Shown here: piece by piece, positions 19,144 to 24,628 of the stretch
Layout of the letters: every line of letters starts with the position of its first letter
How positions within the stretch are numbered: the first letter of the stretch is position 1
From: a virus
DNA: 29,296 nucleotides
Reading direction: 5' to 3' (one strand)
Virus genome (UHGV): UHGV-0080837
Translations under genes and position numbers: made by a program
Notes under the pieces: model-generated
What the model was told of the DNA's origin: nothing
Seen by the model: only the letters and a program-made list of their open reading frames with translations
Databases searched by the model: none

Positions 19144-19371
19144 TTTTCAACCTTTCACCACAAATCAAGACTAACAACCCAATAATAATAACTAACCACT
19201 CTGTTTTTTTGATAAGCACCAAATCGTTTACAAAAAAAATAGCAAATGACTATTGACACTATTCTGGAAATCACAAACTGCACATAATCCATCGCGCTAA
19301 CGGCTCCCGTTGAAGGTTCTTTTGACGATTAACTTTCAGCCGAAGCGCGGTAGGGAGTCATAACGCCAAAG

Positions 19372-20078: not shown

Positions 20079-20406
20079 TCACATTAGTAGCTTTGTTAAC
20101 TCCCTCAATACCAGGTAGAAGAGTAACAAAAATATTGACGCCAGTATTTGCGTGGTCAATGAAGCGTTCATAAACAGATCAATTAGCATTAATAATTCGA
20201 ATATAACATCCATGTCATTCACTCCGTTTAATTTTTAATCTAATGCCAGCAAATGAAGCTGGCCCCCGCACAAAGATTAATGAAAGTCACTTGTCACCAG
20301 TGAGGGGATTTATGAACCACATCCCCCTGAACTGGTGGCCTGTCTGTTTCTCACATTTCACACCCTGCATACAGTTTCCCCCAGGTTATGACTGAGAGGC
20401 TTTGTT

Positions 20407-20736: not shown

Positions 20737-21922
20737 TTTCCTGAAAAACCAGGACGGGCGCTATATCACTGACGGCCTGTCCTCTAAGGACTTCACGCGT
20801 TTATTCGACCTTATCAGGAAAGAACAAACCCGTAAGCGCCGACAAGCTCACCGGACGCTGACGCCAGGTAGACTGAGGAACAAATCCGCCGAAGATATTC
20901 TCAAGTTAGGGAAGAAAAAAGGCGGCACGTTCTTCACGCGAGACGACCTGAAAGGTTTCGAAAAGCTACGGAGTAAAACACGCGAAAAATATGACAGCAA
21001 GACGGCTGGCATCACATACGCCCAGCTGGTGGCATCCAGCCAGGCAATCGATATTAAGCGTGCAAATAACGCCGTGGATGACGGATCTGGTATCAAAAGA
21101 GCTACACCCGTATCTCTTCGCCACAACGTGATTAATATCCGCGTAGAAGCATCGGATATATCCGTCCACCAGCACCATATCGTCCGGATACGCTTTGAAG
21201 AATGGGATCAGATGGTCGATGACATCGCAGAAGACGATAAATCAGCTCTGAAAATCACTAAATCACTGTGCGCTGGGCGGGTGTCTTTCGATTGTGACTG
21301 TGGTCGTCATCAATACTGGTATCGTTACATCGCTACTGCGGGTAACTTTGCCCTGGCCCCGCCAAAAGAATACGCCTATCCAAAAGTTCGTAACCCTAAG
21401 CTACAAGGCGTCGCCTGTAAACACGTGATCCACTCAATGACGCGGTTACAGTCCGCTAGTTGGCAAATGAGTATTGCTCGTGCGTTACAAAAGGCCGCAA
21501 CGCAAATTGCATTTGGTGACGATCGCCGCCGTACAACCAAACACTTCTCAAAAGAAGACGAGAGGGAGTTTAATCGCAATCGCAACAGTAAAACAAACGT
21601 TGACGCTGCCAAGCGCGAATGGAGGCTCTATCAGAAGCGCCAGGCAGCTTTAAGTACAAAACTGGCAAAGGACAACGGCAAGATCGACAAGCTACGTGAC
21701 CAATTGACCAGGGCCAGAAAGTTGTCAGACGCACAGAAAAAACGGGCGGCTGCAAAAGAAGCGGCCTTGCAACGTGAGAAACAGAAAAACAAGGAGCTTC
21801 AGCAACGCCTTGCCGATCAGTTCGCACTGAAGAAGCAAGCGTTCATTGATGCGCTTGTCATGGCTGGAACGCCACAAGAACAGGCTGAGAAGATGTTTAT
21901 AGAGTACGTGAAAAAAGCATAA
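20729..21922 (+). CDS. SWIM-type zinc-finger protein with basic coiled-coil C-terminus
   Basis: CxC-Xn-CxH signature (FDCDCGRHQYWYRY ... GVACKHVIH), then a long K/R/Q/E/A-rich helical tail. Confidence 0.5.
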   Translation: MPDFLKNQDGRYITDGLSSKDFTRLFDLIRKEQTRKRRQAHRTLTPGRLRNKSAEDILKLGKKKGGTFFTRDDLKGFEKLRSKTREKYDSKTAGITYAQLVASSQAIDIKRANNAVDDGSGIKRATPVSLRHNVINIRVEASDISVHQHHIVRIRFEEWDQMVDDIAEDDKSALKITKSLCAGRVSFDCDCGRHQYWYRYIATAGNFALAPPKEYAYPKVRNPKLQGVACKHVIHSMTRLQSASWQMSIARALQKAATQIAFGDDRRRTTKHFSKEDEREFNRNRNSKTNVDAAKREWRLYQKRQAALSTKLAKDNGKIDKLRDQLTRARKLSDAQKKRAAAKEAALQREKQKNKELQQRLADQFALKKQAFIDALVMAGTPQEQAEKMFIEYVKKA

Positions 21923-21966
21923 ACCACACATAGCCTAGTAGTTTATGCTGGGCTTTCATTTTTTTG
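21916..21966 (+). terminator. hairpin plus T-run between convergent genes
   Basis: AGCATAAAC (21916-21924) pairs with GTTTATGCT (21941-21949), followed by GGGCTTTCATTTTTTT. Confidence 0.35.
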
Positions 21967-22684
21967 AAAGATCAATTCCAGTATTATCAAACAAACTGGA
22001 AATATCAGACACCAATTTATTAAAATGCTTGTCATCATTATAGAATGATGTGCTTTTTATAGCGACTATAAAATCACATAAATCTTGCGGAGATTCAATG
22101 CTAACCCCCTTATTTTTATATAGCTCAATAATACTGCCAACATCAGTATGCAATAGTTTTATCGCGCCACAAATTTCTCGCTGTTTCGCAACTAGGTCAT
22201 TAAGTTTATTTTCATTTTCATCTAAGATTTGTTTTGAATATTTAGCGTCATTGGTTGCTTGATTTAACTTTGTTTTCTTTCTTTGCAATTCTATTCTTTT
22301 ATCATAATCAGCAACTTCATCTAAATATCTTATTTCAGTGTATAATTTACTTGTTAGCTTAGATATCTTCAGTGTGAGAATAGGAGCTAACACAGATGCA
22401 AATACTCCATAAACAAATGGGATTACAACGTGATAAACCCACGGGGATACAATCCAATTATCAAAGAACGGGACATTGCCACCAACAAAAACAATAGATA
22501 ATGTATATAGGATGTCGTCCTTTGACTTTAATATAATTAAAATATCCTTCCAGTTAAAAATTAGAAAAGAAATGACAACATATGCAAAAACCTTGTTAAA
22601 TATTTTATCTTTTATTATTTCAGAAAATGATTTTAGTTCTGTTTCATTTATAGACGGATTATCTGTAACTTTTTCTGACATCAT
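21956..22684 (-). CDS. AT-rich moron: two-TM membrane protein with coiled-coil and C-terminal globular region, function unknown
   Basis: 242-aa ORF; sampled 60-nt lines are about 25-27% G+C against about 50% in flanking genes. Two hydrophobic helices (VFAYVVISFLIFNW... and VYHVVIPFVYGVFASVLAPILTL), then K/E/N/Q-rich heptad-like sequence. Confidence 0.5.
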   Translation of the reverse strand: MMSEKVTDNPSINETELKSFSEIIKDKIFNKVFAYVVISFLIFNWKDILIILKSKDDILYTLSIVFVGGNVPFFDNWIVSPWVYHVVIPFVYGVFASVLAPILTLKISKLTSKLYTEIRYLDEVADYDKRIELQRKKTKLNQATNDAKYSKQILDENENKLNDLVAKQREICGAIKLLHTDVGSIIELYKNKGVSIESPQDLCDFIVAIKSTSFYNDDKHFNKLVSDISSLFDNTGIDLSKK

Positions 22685-22705
22685 AGCTTATCCTGATTAC
22701 TTTTA

Positions 22706-22906
22706 TTATGGATAGTTAAAAGATTCAACAGGTGATGGTGGCTGAATTGGGTAATGTTTCTTCTCGTACTCCTCAATGAGAAGACTCATAACCTCAAAGA
22801 AATCACCTTCCGGAGTATTCATTTCCGGTTCGTTATCGAACATCGGTTCGACCGCACGCAGTGCGGCCTCATAATCTTGTTCTGTACGGATAGGTTTAAT
22901 GTTCAT
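22706..22906 (-). CDS. small acidic protein, possibly antitoxin-N-domain-like
   Basis: 66-aa ORF (IKPIRTEQDYEAALRAVEPMFDNEPEMNTPEGDFFEVMSLLIEEYEKKHYPI). Normal GC, weak RBS; the family assignment is from a low-confidence recollection. Confidence 0.35.
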   Translation of the reverse strand: MNIKPIRTEQDYEAALRAVEPMFDNEPEMNTPEGDFFEVMSLLIEEYEKKHYPIQPPSPVESFNYP

Positions 22907-22917
22907 TAATTACAAAG

Positions 22918-22947
22918 GAAAGCCCACTTGCTAAGTGGGCTTTTTGT
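22918..22947. terminator. hairpin plus T-run between higA and the small ORF
   Basis: GCCCAC TTGCTAA GTGGGC (22923-22941) with TTTTT on the + side and a U-rich tract on the - side. Confidence 0.4.
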
Positions 22948-22962
22948 ATGTGTTTTACTATA

Positions 22963-23301
22963 TCAGGCTGCTTTTTTATTCAGGTTCCGCTGAGAAATAA
23001 ATTTTTCAGCAGTATTGATACGACTTAACTCTTCCTGAACGCGCATATCATTTTCGACTTCCCACAGATCTACTGCGGTCTGAAGATTAATCCAAAAATC
23101 TACAGAAGTATCGAATGCTTTTGCCAGGCGATATGCCATATCCATCGTTAGCTTACGATTATTATTAACAAGAGCACTTACGGTGTTACGATGAACATGA
23201 AGTATTTCTGCTAACTCGTTGATCTTCAGCTCTAACGGCTCCAGGTATTCGTACAGAAGGATATCACCTACGGTCGTCGGTTTTCTGGTTGCCTGTTTCA
23301 T
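22963..23301 (-). CDS. higA: HigA-family antitoxin (XRE-type HTH)
   Basis: 112-aa ORF with the HigA-type HTH pattern (VGDILLYEYLEPLELKINELAEILHVHRNTVSALVNNNRKLTMDMAYRLAKAFDTSVDFWINLQ), immediately downstream of the toxin gene. Confidence 0.75.
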   Translation of the reverse strand: MKQATRKPTTVGDILLYEYLEPLELKINELAEILHVHRNTVSALVNNNRKLTMDMAYRLAKAFDTSVDFWINLQTAVDLWEVENDMRVQEELSRINTAEKFISQRNLNKKAA

Positions 23302-23371
23302 TTTTTGCCCTTACTAGCGTGCGTATTAAGTGGACTCTGGTCAGAACCCGGACCGTAACCGGGAATCTGTT

Positions 23372-23674
23372 TTAGTATTTGTGTGGGTCGAGATACAAGT
23401 CCTCGGCCTTTCCGTTAACCCACTTAAAAATTAACCTATATTGCTTATTCACCCTTACTGATGAATAGCCATTTAGCTTCCCTGACAGTTCCTCATACCG
23501 ATTACCTGGTGGTGATCTTAAATCCTTACAGGTAGTTGCGGCATTGATAATGTCCAACTTCCGTGACAATGTCATATGAATATCAGGAGGTATCTTTCTA
23601 TGTGGTGTTGAAAATTCAAAAAAATCATCAAGCCACGCATCCCTGAAATCCTTTATGTTAATTTTTTTGGTCAT
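23372..23674 (-). CDS. higB: HigB-like toxin (plasmid maintenance system killer protein family)
   Basis: 100-aa ORF with the family pattern DL.SPPGNRYEELSGKLNGYSSVRVNKQYRLIFKWVNG.AEDLYLDPHKY; toxin-first order typical of higBA. Confidence 0.75.
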   Translation of the reverse strand: MTKKINIKDFRDAWLDDFFEFSTPHRKIPPDIHMTLSRKLDIINAATTCKDLRSPPGNRYEELSGKLNGYSSVRVNKQYRLIFKWVNGKAEDLYLDPHKY

Positions 23675-23719
23675 TAGTCATTTGATCCTCCGTGATGATT
23701 ACCGAATGCCATAACTATA

Positions 23720-23747
23720 GCGCACTGTTGCACTGTGCGCAAGTGCA
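23720..23747. promoter_or_regulatory. overlapping palindromes in the higBA promoter region (candidate HigA operator)
   Basis: GCGCAC (23720-23725) / GTGCGC (23735-23740) and TGCACT (23729-23734) / AGTGCA (23742-23747), about 50 nt upstream of the higB start. Confidence 0.4.
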
Positions 23748-23836
23748 TTTTATGGATTCCCCCTCCTTCATCCAAAATCACAATCTCCCGAAAATCTTCC
23801 TTTCGATACCTGACAGATCGACCTTTGAGGATGCTT

Positions 23837-24628
23837 ATGGGCCGTTTTGACGAATGGTTTGCTGACGATGCAAACCTGGCAAGTAAGGAGTCAGAACATG
23901 ACAGCACGCAGAGAGAAACGCCAGCGCCGATTGAAGCGAATGCAGGAGGTGCGCCGGAACATGGCAATACCGGTTCGGATTCATTCAGCATTCTGGAAGA
24001 GCAACCCGCCGCCAAAGCTGATAGCCATGATAATTTTGCTGATAGCAACGCTGGCCTTACTCCGGATGCTGCCGAATCAGATATAGCCATACTTCCACCT
24101 TCCCTGGCTGGCAGAGAACCAACTCCACAGCTAAAAGCACGCTATAACGGGCATAAAGCCTTTAATGACCAAATCCGCGCAGACTGGATGCTGATTATTG
24201 AATCCAGCCCAGACGCGTTTCAGGCTCTCTTATATCGACCAGATGTTGGCACATATGGGGTAGTCAGCGACGAAACAGGAGAAGAGTCATTCACTGAACT
24301 GGATAACAACCAACGCGAACTGACTTACCAGGAACCTGAAATCGTTTATGTGCTGGATAACCCTGACGGGCGTGACTCTTTCCATGCGATTGACGCAGAC
24401 GGTGAGCAGGATGGCTTAACCGATGATGTTCTGATTCTGCGTATTGCAGCAAATAACGTCCCCGTCGGCTCAATTCTTGAATGGAATGAAGAGATGGTAA
24501 ACGGCGTAGCCCGCCGCTGGTGGTACGTGCACCGTATTTTTAGCTACGGCACACAGCATGTTGGTTCGCTTTACTACTGCATACCTGCCAGGAATTTTGA
24601 TACGACTCAAAACGGAGTGATCGAATGA
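23837..24628 (+). CDS. hypothetical acidic protein, first gene of a rightward morphogenesis-type operon
   Basis: Start taken at the ATG at 23837 after GAGGA, inside track ORF 23735..24628. Acidic and Ala/Pro-rich N-terminal half; stop overlaps the next ATG. Confidence 0.45.
   Translation: MGRFDEWFADDANLASKESEHDSTQRETPAPIEANAGGAPEHGNTGSDSFSILEEQPAAKADSHDNFADSNAGLTPDAAESDIAILPPSLAGREPTPQLKARYNGHKAFNDQIRADWMLIIESSPDAFQALLYRPDVGTYGVVSDETGEESFTELDNNQRELTYQEPEIVYVLDNPDGRDSFHAIDADGEQDGLTDDVLILRIAANNVPVGSILEWNEEMVNGVARRWWYVHRIFSYGTQHVGSLYYCIPARNFDTTQNGVIE

Follow-up and report, generated by a model that had tools for sequence, protein, structure and literature searches.

The cargo carried between tail genes 25 and 7 of the phage-plasmid analysed here very probably has three layers: a complete higB-higA (higBA) toxin-antitoxin (TA) cassette, the pseudogene of an antitoxin, and a separate membrane-protein moron. 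The DNA under study (the window, the whole stretch of 29,296 nucleotides) is a D6-like phage-plasmid of the P1 family, and the cargo occupies segment 21923-23836, on the opposite strand to the tail genes. All the elements that an earlier note on this DNA had described in the segment were recovered where it had placed them, on the minus strand. The features are as follows:

22907-23772, minus strand: higBA cassette, about 865 bp, comprising promoter/operator, higB, higA and terminator
23714-23747, minus strand: candidate promoter with overlapping operator (-35 TTGCGC at 23737-23742, 17-nt spacer, -10 TATAGT at 23714-23719)
23372-23674, minus strand: higB toxin, RelE-fold, 100 aa (PF05015 HigB-like_toxin, E = 4.4e-35)
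22963-23301, minus strand: higA antitoxin/repressor, YbaQ-like HTH_3, 112 aa (TIGR02607 antidote_HigA, E = 7.9e-30)
22917-22945, minus strand: hairpin resembling an intrinsic terminator, ending the higBA cassette, with a stem of 11-13 pairs and then a T-rich tail on both strands
22706-22906, minus strand: 66-aa ORF, 5' antitoxin remnant, about 59 homologous codons plus a junk tail (PADLOC PD-Lambda-2_B, E = 2.5e-16)
21956-22684, minus strand: AT-rich membrane/coiled-coil protein of 242 aa (D6 orf73 family, PHROG 8191)

The higB-higA cassette within the tail gene region

The match of HigB to PF05015 spans the full profile (positions 1-91 of 91), and the protein is 80% identical to the E. coli chromosomal HigB-1 and unchanged in nine of nine sibling loci. 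HigA scored 102.5 bits against TIGR02607, above the curated equivalog cutoff of 47.7, matched HTH_3 (E = 7e-11) and the YbaQ structure PDB 2EBY (E = 1e-53), and is 78% identical to YbaQ of an E. coli B2 strain. On the minus strand higB precedes higA, with a single promoter region upstream of the two genes and a single terminator downstream. The profile matches and this gene order bear out the toxin-first higB-higA pair that the earlier note had read from the translations. The pair is a type II TA system of the HigB-1/YbaQ subgroup, in which the toxin and neutralising roles are assigned by homology to HigB-1 and YbaQ: HigB is predicted to be a RelE-fold, ribosome-dependent mRNA endonuclease, which HigA would bind and neutralise. 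Pseudomonas putida GraT/GraA (PDB 6F8S, 6FIX) is a distant relative that falls by sequence in the same HigB/HigA subfamily (HigB against GraT 6F8S_B, E = 2.8e-14; HigA against GraA, E = 5e-9).

Among the closest known systems is higB-1/ybaQ of E. coli phylogroups B2 and F, which is toxin-first and has the same promoter core, TGCACTTGCGCACAGTGC, and the same -10 position as the window. The chromosomal pair lies between ybaP and copA and its toxin has been lost in most phylogroups, whereas the window copy belongs to a phage-plasmid, where it sits within a tail operon and has its own terminator; higB and higA are 70 nt apart in the window, with a GC hairpin in the spacer, and 35 nt apart in the E. 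coli chromosome. The gene ybaQ has been reported to be essential only in the presence of higB-1 (bioRxiv 10.1101/2020.05.25.114553). The cassette can be seen as a mobile paralogue of this E. coli pair.

The limits of the cassette were set where homology ends to sibling plasmids that have another TA in its place. Aligned with these plasmids, its left breakpoint falls directly 5' of the ATG of the 66-aa remnant and its right breakpoint at about 23771-23775, and its GC content is 39-44% compared with about 50% in the flanking tail genes. The hairpin noticed earlier downstream of higA was confirmed at 22917-22945 (RNA dG -17.9 kcal/mol, z = -3.95); the alignment assigns it to the cassette, as it is absent in plasmids with the PF09907 module, and it would close the higBA unit as a terminator. 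An Rfam scan of 21800-23950 gave sub-threshold chance matches on the hairpin only.

The suggestion in the earlier note that higBA is a module swap for phd-doc was not upheld, since a plasmid 99.5% identical at the locus carries phd-doc too, and D6-like plasmids are reported to carry both higBA and phd-doc (PMC6799933). A tblastn search of the 29-kb window with approximate Phd and Doc query sequences found no phd or doc. Because the near-identical plasmid and the D6-like plasmids carry both modules, and genes 25 and 7 of P1 are contiguous with a junction free of cargo, we consider the cargo to be an added insertion at another site. Beside phd-doc, higBA may stabilise the plasmid prophage by post-segregational growth arrest.

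The promoter and candidate operator

The hexamers of the higB promoter were taken by eye from the sequence; a simple consensus scan missed the promoter because its -35 is weak, with only three of six consensus matches. The overlapping site contains two perfect 6-bp dyads (GCGCAC 23720-25 / GTGCGC 23735-40 and TGCACT 23729-34 / AGTGCA 23742-47), which are interleaved and made up of four GCAC/GTGC half-sites, and a direct repeat (GCACTGT, two copies) is found there as well. As symmetry alone the dyads are not significant: the intergenic region, 162 nt long, would by chance hold two or more perfect 6-bp inverted repeats with P = 0.12, and an interleaved pair of them with P = 0.06. An exact P1 late-promoter -22 box was also seen at 23675-23683, with no -10 at the right spacing, and is either unexplained or coincidental.

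The 18-nt core TGCACTTGCGCACAGTGC is identical in the window, in an S. arizonae plasmid whose HigB is 83% identical and whose context is unrelated, and in the higB-1/ybaQ promoter of the E. coli B2 chromosome, while the flanks of the core are unalignable among the three loci. In each of four loci, the 120 nt before higB contain 4-5 copies of the pentamer [TC]GCAC/GTGC[AG], where 0.2-0.4 copies are expected (P<=0.0016 each); it was derived from the window, so the independent tests are the counts in the other loci. Among nine sibling plasmids the sole polymorphism inside 23714-23747 is T/C at 23726, in the spacer between half-sites. We accept the dyads as an operator because homologous loci that are independent of one another, three in number and with unalignable flanks, share the 18-nt core without a difference, and the conserved site is a candidate HigA operator. 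The autoregulation that the earlier note had attached to the dyads thus finds its support in core conservation and in published HigB-1/YbaQ data, not in dyad statistics: knock-down of ybaQ derepresses higB-1, and the higB-1 promoter holds a YbaQ motif (bioRxiv 10.1101/2020.05.25.114553). HigA may repress the shared promoter through the four-half-site GCAC/GTGC operator, which overlaps the -35/-10 spacer, and TGCACTTGCGCACAGTGC would then be a defined operator core for the YbaQ subgroup.

We consider it most improbable that the dyads are instead chance symmetry or part of the divergent late promoter of the tail gene, gene 7. The same intergenic region has to serve gene 7 too, and the exact -22 box lies near the dyads, but the dyads sit in the cassette-specific part of this region, outside the part common to plasmids with the other TA, and the identical core precedes homologous higB genes in two places that lack a phage tail gene, the Salmonella plasmid and the E. 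coli chromosome. Likewise, the dyads form a terminator-like hairpin on the plus strand and by themselves lack significance (P = 0.06-0.12), yet clustered GCAC/GTGC half-sites are kept in more distant HigB homologues, and published work shows that the chromosomal copy is repressed through YbaQ (bioRxiv 10.1101/2020.05.25.114553).

The antitoxin remnant and the membrane-protein gene

The 66-aa ORF is a pseudogene of an antitoxin of the K-12-HigA/PD-lambda-2B type and is probably not expressed. The earlier note had likened it to the N-terminal segment of longer HigA-type antitoxins, without an HTH, and the full gene of 119 aa is indeed present at the same place in phage D6, whose orf70-orf73 (MF356679) occupy the same locus between homologues of gene 25 and gene 7. 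From higB through higA and the terminator to the first 59 codons of orf72, D6 and the window are 99% identical; D6 differs in its full-length, HTH-containing orf72 and in another orf73 allele (58% aa identity), where the window has a deletion/replacement of about 200 bp. The 66-aa ORF is 99% identical to orf72 down to window position 22725, where homology ends, and the HTH_3 of orf72 (residues 63-115) is in the region deleted in the window. No HTH and no Pfam or NCBIfam match were found for the 66-aa protein, and its PADLOC match is to the N-terminus of PD-Lambda-2_B (profile positions 1-65). Aligned with the antitoxin of plasmid pTB423, it is identical at 58 of 65 residues, and residues 1-59 differ at two positions.

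Two known systems are related to the parent gene of the remnant. D6 orf72 aligns to HigA of K-12 HigB/HigA (YgjN/YgjM; PDB 5IFG, 5IFG_B) over both domains, its N-domain as well as its HTH at the C-terminus (E = 8.7e-8); the window differs from the K-12 pair and from the sibling PF09907 modules in having no toxin, HTH or Shine-Dalgarno sequence. The PF09907 toxin of sibling plasmids and the orphan antitoxin match components A and B of the anti-phage system PD-lambda-2 (Vassallo et al. 2022, PMC9519451), with E = 1e-41 for the pTB423 toxin against PD-Lambda-2_A and E = 4e-43 for D6 orf72 against PD-Lambda-2_B. Of the 402 positions of PD-Lambda-2_B, the window ORF matches 1-65 and D6 matches 1-119, and the peptidase part (120-402) is unmatched. 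Component C is missing and A is missing from the window, so that only homologous building blocks are in common; the three-gene PD-lambda-2 defence system was excluded for the window, which has no peptidase fusion, A or C.

Several features point to loss of expression and function. In the alignment, the GGAG (Shine-Dalgarno) of toxin-coupled alleles is replaced by CCTTTG before the 66-aa ORF; the terminator hairpin lies 8 nt upstream, and the consensus promoter scan found no promoter-like site in between. The ORF is preceded by the terminator of an unrelated cassette, and PF09907 HigB is found in sibling plasmids only, not in the window. In RefSeq/PGAP the window version is annotated as a pseudogene ('incomplete; missing C-terminus'). 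Many truncated copies of the same antitoxin exist elsewhere, independent of one another, with differing end points and junk tails. Short N-terminal-only HigA proteins as a genuine family were ruled out by these differing ends and frameshift tails. What speaks against a pseudogene is that the ORF is intact in all nine sibling loci examined, with only three variable sites, and belongs to phrog_10398, a PHROG of 66-aa proteins, so its loss of function is presumed; the cassette as a whole is, however, too uniform in sequence for a test of selection.

The 242-aa protein is an independent cargo gene and a separate hypervariable moron, with about 30% GC and 58% aa identity to the D6 allele. Its AF2 model (pLDDT 78.7) has N-terminal helices and a long helix at 81-192 and gave no significant BFVD match, and the protein had no Pfam, NCBIfam or PADLOC match. 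A word-indexed search found it in E. coli only, and an exhaustive search gave 42 representatives, none annotated. A search with a 9-sequence alignment found one relative standing by itself between housekeeping genes of an Enterobacter chromosome (a single chromosomal locus), and another adjoins an IMS-family gene with no TA.

The earlier note had also offered the acidic 66-aa ORF as a possible stand-alone neutraliser for the membrane protein next to it; for this claim, or for regulation of that protein in a toxin/antidote or effector/immunity pair, we find hardly any room. The two genes are adjacent, 21 nt apart, and all D6-like variants with the membrane-protein gene, diverged ones included, have a HigA-type gene in front of it, but the cognate partner of the antitoxin is the PF09907 HigB, to which it is translationally coupled in siblings, and the PF09907 HigB/HigA pair of pTB423 occurs without the membrane protein. 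One member of the membrane-protein family has a weak PADLOC match to '2TM effector' (E = 4e-4); relatives nevertheless occur without a TA, as in Enterobacter and beside the IMS-family gene, and in the alignment a terminator-like hairpin separates the antitoxin and membrane-protein genes in locus types B and C. Moreover, the exchange of the membrane allele next to an N-domain that remained 99% identical makes co-evolution less likely.

Somewhat less improbable, although still doubtful, is that the fragment is kept as a working HTH-less anti-addiction factor against the PF09907 HigB of competing, incompatible D6-like plasmids, so that its carrier would displace rivals without post-segregational killing. 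There is a slim chance that both the 66-aa N-domain and the full-length orphan of D6 act in trans, neutralising the PF09907 HigB encoded at the same locus of rival plasmids. In the complex of Yang et al. from 2016 (PDB 5IFG), the N-domain of HigA reportedly contacts HigB. The HTH of K-12-type HigA is C-terminal (PMC7984235), and residues 1-59 of the fragment are nearly those of the cognate antitoxin of the pTB423 toxin, with two differences; loss of the dimerising HTH domain, however, may destabilise the 66-aa protein. The PF09907 toxin is in circulation among sibling plasmids, at this very locus, but the fragment has lost the GGAG of the coupled alleles and follows a strong hairpin with no promoter-like site in between. 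Its intactness in nine of nine loci, on the commonest haplotype, is no sign of selection because sequence diversity is too low, and the short copies elsewhere, broken at many points and ending in junk tails, indicate decay and not a conserved stand-alone family. If true, an anti-addiction role would account for the truncated haplotype being the most common one.

Locus variants and the history of the site

The pseudogene reading agrees with the variants of the locus. At the same site, pTB423 carries PF09907 HigB and the 119-aa HigA, the membrane protein being absent, and pF374-2, L012 and L014 carry both TA genes and the membrane protein; the antitoxin directly follows the toxin (pTB423, pF374-2) and is translationally coupled to it. 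D6 and pSO21_75 have the PF05015 cassette, the full-length orphan HigA and the membrane protein, and the window has the D6-like arrangement with the orphan truncated. The truncation junction is present in 71 of 71 PLSDB plasmids with the window-type membrane-protein allele, and the truncated haplotype is the commonest (71-74 of 112 plasmids). The order HigB(PF09907)-HigA-membrane protein is also conserved in diverged elements, which could tie the membrane protein functionally to that TA.

With the direction of replacement deduced by parsimony, the older antitoxin, unrelated to that of the cassette, would have been of the K-12 HigA type, with an N-terminal toxin-binding domain and a C-terminal HTH. 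The present cassette probably replaced its cognate PF09907 higB together with the promoter, giving the orphaned state preserved in phage D6. A later recombination then probably brought in the divergent membrane-protein allele of the window and, in the same event, deleted the HTH half of the antitoxin. The 'remnant of a displaced antitoxin gene' of the earlier note therefore stands as to the remnant, whereas the displaced gene appears to be the toxin partner, PF09907 HigB, with the antitoxin first orphaned and then truncated.

Part of this is already known, since higBA has been published for D6-like plasmid prophages (PMC6799933) and RefSeq had flagged the 66-aa ORF as the pseudogene of a truncated HigA. 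The result matters little beyond correct annotation, and its modest added value is the reconstructed history. The hotspot between tail genes 25 and 7 would represent serial TA displacement, from the PF09907 module to an orphan antitoxin and then to a truncated remnant, and may serve as a neat case of TA turnover in phage-plasmids, in which a hypervariable membrane-protein moron rides along.

Inserted cargo between the tail genes

Four minus-strand ORFs lie between plus-strand tail genes at 21923-23836 of the window. From 22725 rightwards this region shows 99% identity to phage D6. Full-length matches to the region are non-mobilizable plasmids of about 90 kb from E. coli, Salmonella and Shigella; PLSDB gave 112 matching records (74 with at least 80% query coverage), and the complete E. 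coli genomes searched gave 95 matching plasmids and no chromosomal match. The matching plasmids are D6-like plasmid prophages of the P1 family. P1 itself has the uninterrupted gene run 26-25-7-24-6, with 3 nt separating genes 25 and 7 (P1 locus L025, 3718-3722), and because these two adjoin there, the entire minus-strand block is inserted cargo. GC content is layered: the tail genes are at about 50%, the toxin-antitoxin (TA) cassette at 39-44% and the gene for a 242-aa protein at about 30%. Opposite-strand cargo splits the late operon of D6-like elements between genes 25 and 7; the 60 nt 5' of gene 7 (window 23776-23836) are common to all locus variants and are presumably the new promoter source for genes 7-24-6-5.

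The earlier note regarded higBA as a module swap for phd-doc, a view that finds no support. A tblastn search with Phd and Doc probes revealed no phd-doc in the 29-kb window, which is part of its replicon; plasmid p1_000533 (99.5% identical at the higBA locus) has phd-doc and another RelE/HigA pair alongside higBA, D6-like plasmids have been described with both phd-doc and higBA (PMC6799933), and higBA occupies a different place from phd-doc. The module is an addition, not a swap. Between mat and gene 26, sibling plasmids contain one more RelE/ParE-HigA pair (NZ_CP028585.2 79645-80216, locus L022 29645-30216); in the window this interval is just a gap of 330 nt (20079-20406). It looks like another TA hotspot within these tail genes.

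The higBA cassette and its putative operator

The toxin-first pair read by the earlier note is present, with a strong hairpin after higA:

23372-23674, minus strand: higB, 100-aa ORF, HigB-like RelE-fold toxin (PF05015, full profile, E=4.4e-35)
22963-23301, minus strand: higA, 112-aa ORF, HigA antitoxin (TIGR02607, 102.5 bits vs cutoff 47.7; HTH_3, E=7e-11)
22917-22945, minus strand: hairpin 3' of higA (dG -17.9 kcal/mol, z=-3.95)
23737-42, minus strand: candidate -35, TTGCGC, read from sequence
23714-19, minus strand: candidate -10, TATAGT, read from sequence, with a 17-nt spacer to the -35

Comparison with sibling plasmids having another TA at the same site set the cassette limits directly 5' of the ATG of a 66-aa ORF on the left (alignment A2) and at about 23771-23775 on the right (alignment A3). 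These limits lie beyond the promoter region and terminator, so the cassette brings its own. The E. coli B2 chromosomal higB-1/ybaQ pair is 80% (HigB) and 78% (HigA) identical to the window pair, and by this close homology we accept higBA as a probable TA module. In E. coli, ybaQ is essential only in strains having higB-1, its knock-down strongly derepresses higB-1, and a YbaQ motif was found in the higB-1 promoter (Rousset et al., bioRxiv 10.1101/2020.05.25.114553).

A simple consensus scan did not report the candidate higB promoter because its -35 matches at only 3/6. The spacer and -35 are occupied by TGCAC-TTG-CGCAC-A-GTGCA-ACA-GTGCG, four GCAC/GTGC half-sites that can be read as two interleaved dyads or as a nested quasi-palindrome, and both perfect 6-bp dyads of the earlier note are present (23720-25/23735-40 and 23729-34/23742-47). 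Judged by chance statistics, the dyads do not convince by themselves: two or more such repeats have P=0.12, and a pair that interleaves has P=0.06. The putative HigA operator is accepted instead on conservation in other loci and the published YbaQ repression (Rousset et al.). The 18-nt core TGCACTTGCGCACAGTGC is identical in E. coli B2 higB-1/ybaQ, with the -10 at the same position, and an S. arizonae plasmid with a quite different neighbourhood (HigB 83% identical) retains AATGCACTTGCGCACAGTGCA...GTGCGCTA in otherwise unalignable upstream DNA. In two more distant HigB loci, on Enterobacter and Vibrio plasmids (59-61% identity), the [TC]GCAC/GTGC[AG] pentamer occurs 4-5 times within the 120 nt upstream vs 0.2-0.4 expected (P<=0.0016 each); since the window supplied the definition of the pentamer, independent testing comes only from counts at other loci. 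Within the site, nine sibling plasmids show a sole polymorphism, 23726 T/C, which falls in a spacer between half-sites.

Several further features were observed around the cassette. The E. coli O157:H7 chromosome (L024, 571-707) has lost higB-1 before ybaQ, leaving a degraded operator trace, GGACTTGTTTAATGTG... The higB-higA spacer is 70 nt vs 35 nt in chromosomal higB-1/ybaQ and contains a GC-rich 5-bp stem, CCCGG...CCGGG (23347-23363). A 7-codon mini-ORF (23658-23681, minus strand; ATG ACT AAT GAC CAA AAA AAT TAA) begins 5 nt past GGAGG and runs out of frame over the higB ATG, which as annotated is 12 nt from the SD. The mini-ORF could place toxin translation under the control of a leader peptide or of coupling; neither the chromosomal nor the S. 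arizonae homologue conserves it. In two comparison loci, L015 (CP042632.1) and L017 (CP157128.1), single-base indels frameshift higA and leave higB intact, probably sequencing errors since a toxin without antitoxin should be lethal. The exact 9-mer AAATGACTA, the '-22 region' of P1 late promoter LP26, is expected about 0.2 times per window by chance and occurs twice:

19244-19252, plus strand: upstream of the mat homologue, with N4 and CACTAT, a plausible late promoter
23675-23683, minus strand: abutting the higB start codon, with no -10 found at the right spacing

The truncated antitoxin and the membrane protein

22706-22906, minus strand: 66-aa ORF (PADLOC PD-Lambda-2_B, E=2.5e-16)
21956-22684, minus strand: 242-aa ORF, membrane protein of the PHROG 8191 family

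The earlier note offered two readings of the HTH-less 66-aa ORF, of which the remnant of a displaced antitoxin gene is borne out. Phage D6 has at the same place the 119-aa gene orf72, annotated as a HigA-family antitoxin; identity is 99% through codon 59, after which homology decays over about 24 nt and ends, and about 200 bp of orf72, including the HTH_3 domain (residues 63-115), are missing in the window. RefSeq PGAP labels the window's version 'incomplete; missing C-terminus'. D6 orf72 aligns with E. coli K-12 HigA (PDB 5IFG_B) over both domains (E=8.7e-8) and matches the first 119 profile positions of PD-Lambda-2_B (E=4e-43), and the remnant belongs to another HigA family than the cassette's YbaQ-like HigA. 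From these comparisons the ORF is predicted to be a pseudogenised orphan antitoxin.

All nine sibling loci (9/9) keep the reading frame open, and three sites in it vary (E20K, P66L and one synonymous); the cassette is almost invariant throughout, however, so an unbroken frame says nothing about selection. The ORF's residues 1-59 have just two differences from an antitoxin whose cognate toxin circulates in sibling plasmids, as would suit trans-neutralisation of that toxin (anti-addiction); we consider this quite improbable, however, as the ORF has no SD, stands 8 nt downstream of a terminator with no promoter-like site found in the interval, and has lost the dimerising and DNA-binding half. Short N-terminal-only copies of this antitoxin in many other genomes have varied end residues and frameshift tails, a signature of repeated decay that likewise speaks against function. 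The other suggestion, a neutraliser of the adjacent membrane protein, is unsupported: one relative of the 242-aa protein stands alone among housekeeping genes on an Enterobacter chromosome, another, on a short contig of 2.6 kb, has an IMS-family gene as its neighbour and no TA next to it, and pTB423 has the TA pair without such a protein. The antitoxin's partner is therefore a PF09907 HigB, not the membrane protein.

A search of 1.8 billion proteins gave 42 representatives of the PHROG 8191 family at 50% identity; it is a small family, whose members have in common conserved N-terminal helices carrying NW, P and G motifs. The AF2 model of the window protein (pLDDT 78.7) consists of helices at the N-terminus, a single long helix (81-192) and a small bundle of helices at the C-terminus, and BFVD gave no structural match to it; one weak PADLOC '2TM effector' match, from a family member (E=4e-4), is only a lead. 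The membrane/coiled-coil gene (window 21956-22684; comparison loci L001 4032-4760, L005 1952-2686, L012 3001-3738, L014 3001-3780) is hypervariable at its syntenic position (36-58% aa identity, about 30% GC) between conserved tail genes, a pattern typical of defence or exclusion morons.

Proposed order of replacement at the locus

The site between genes 25 and 7 exists in four states:

State A, pTB423: PF09907 HigB (E=3.3e-34; PD-Lambda-2_A, E=1e-41), a 3 nt gap, then the 119-aa antitoxin
State B, pF374-2 and the more diverged L012 and L014: the state-A pair plus a membrane-protein homologue
State C, D6 and pSO21_75: PF05015 cassette, full-length orphan antitoxin and membrane protein
State D, the window: arranged as C, with the orphan antitoxin truncated

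In states A and B the antitoxin's Shine-Dalgarno (GGAG) lies inside the 3' end of its toxin gene, and in states C and D CCTTTG stands in its place, right behind the cassette terminator. The window's membrane-protein allele is 58% identical (aa) to that of D6, and all 71 PLSDB plasmids bearing it have the truncation junction, none pairing it with a full-length antitoxin; allele exchange and HTH loss are always linked. We have proposed a parsimonious two-step order, in which the PF05015 cassette would have replaced the PF09907 toxin and its promoter, and a later second recombination would have imported the divergent membrane-protein allele and deleted the orphan's HTH half. State D is the commonest haplotype. 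The higBA cassette itself is a known, already annotated and ordinary feature with a conserved putative operator, and the novelty lies only in this reconstructed order of TA displacement at one phage-plasmid hotspot.
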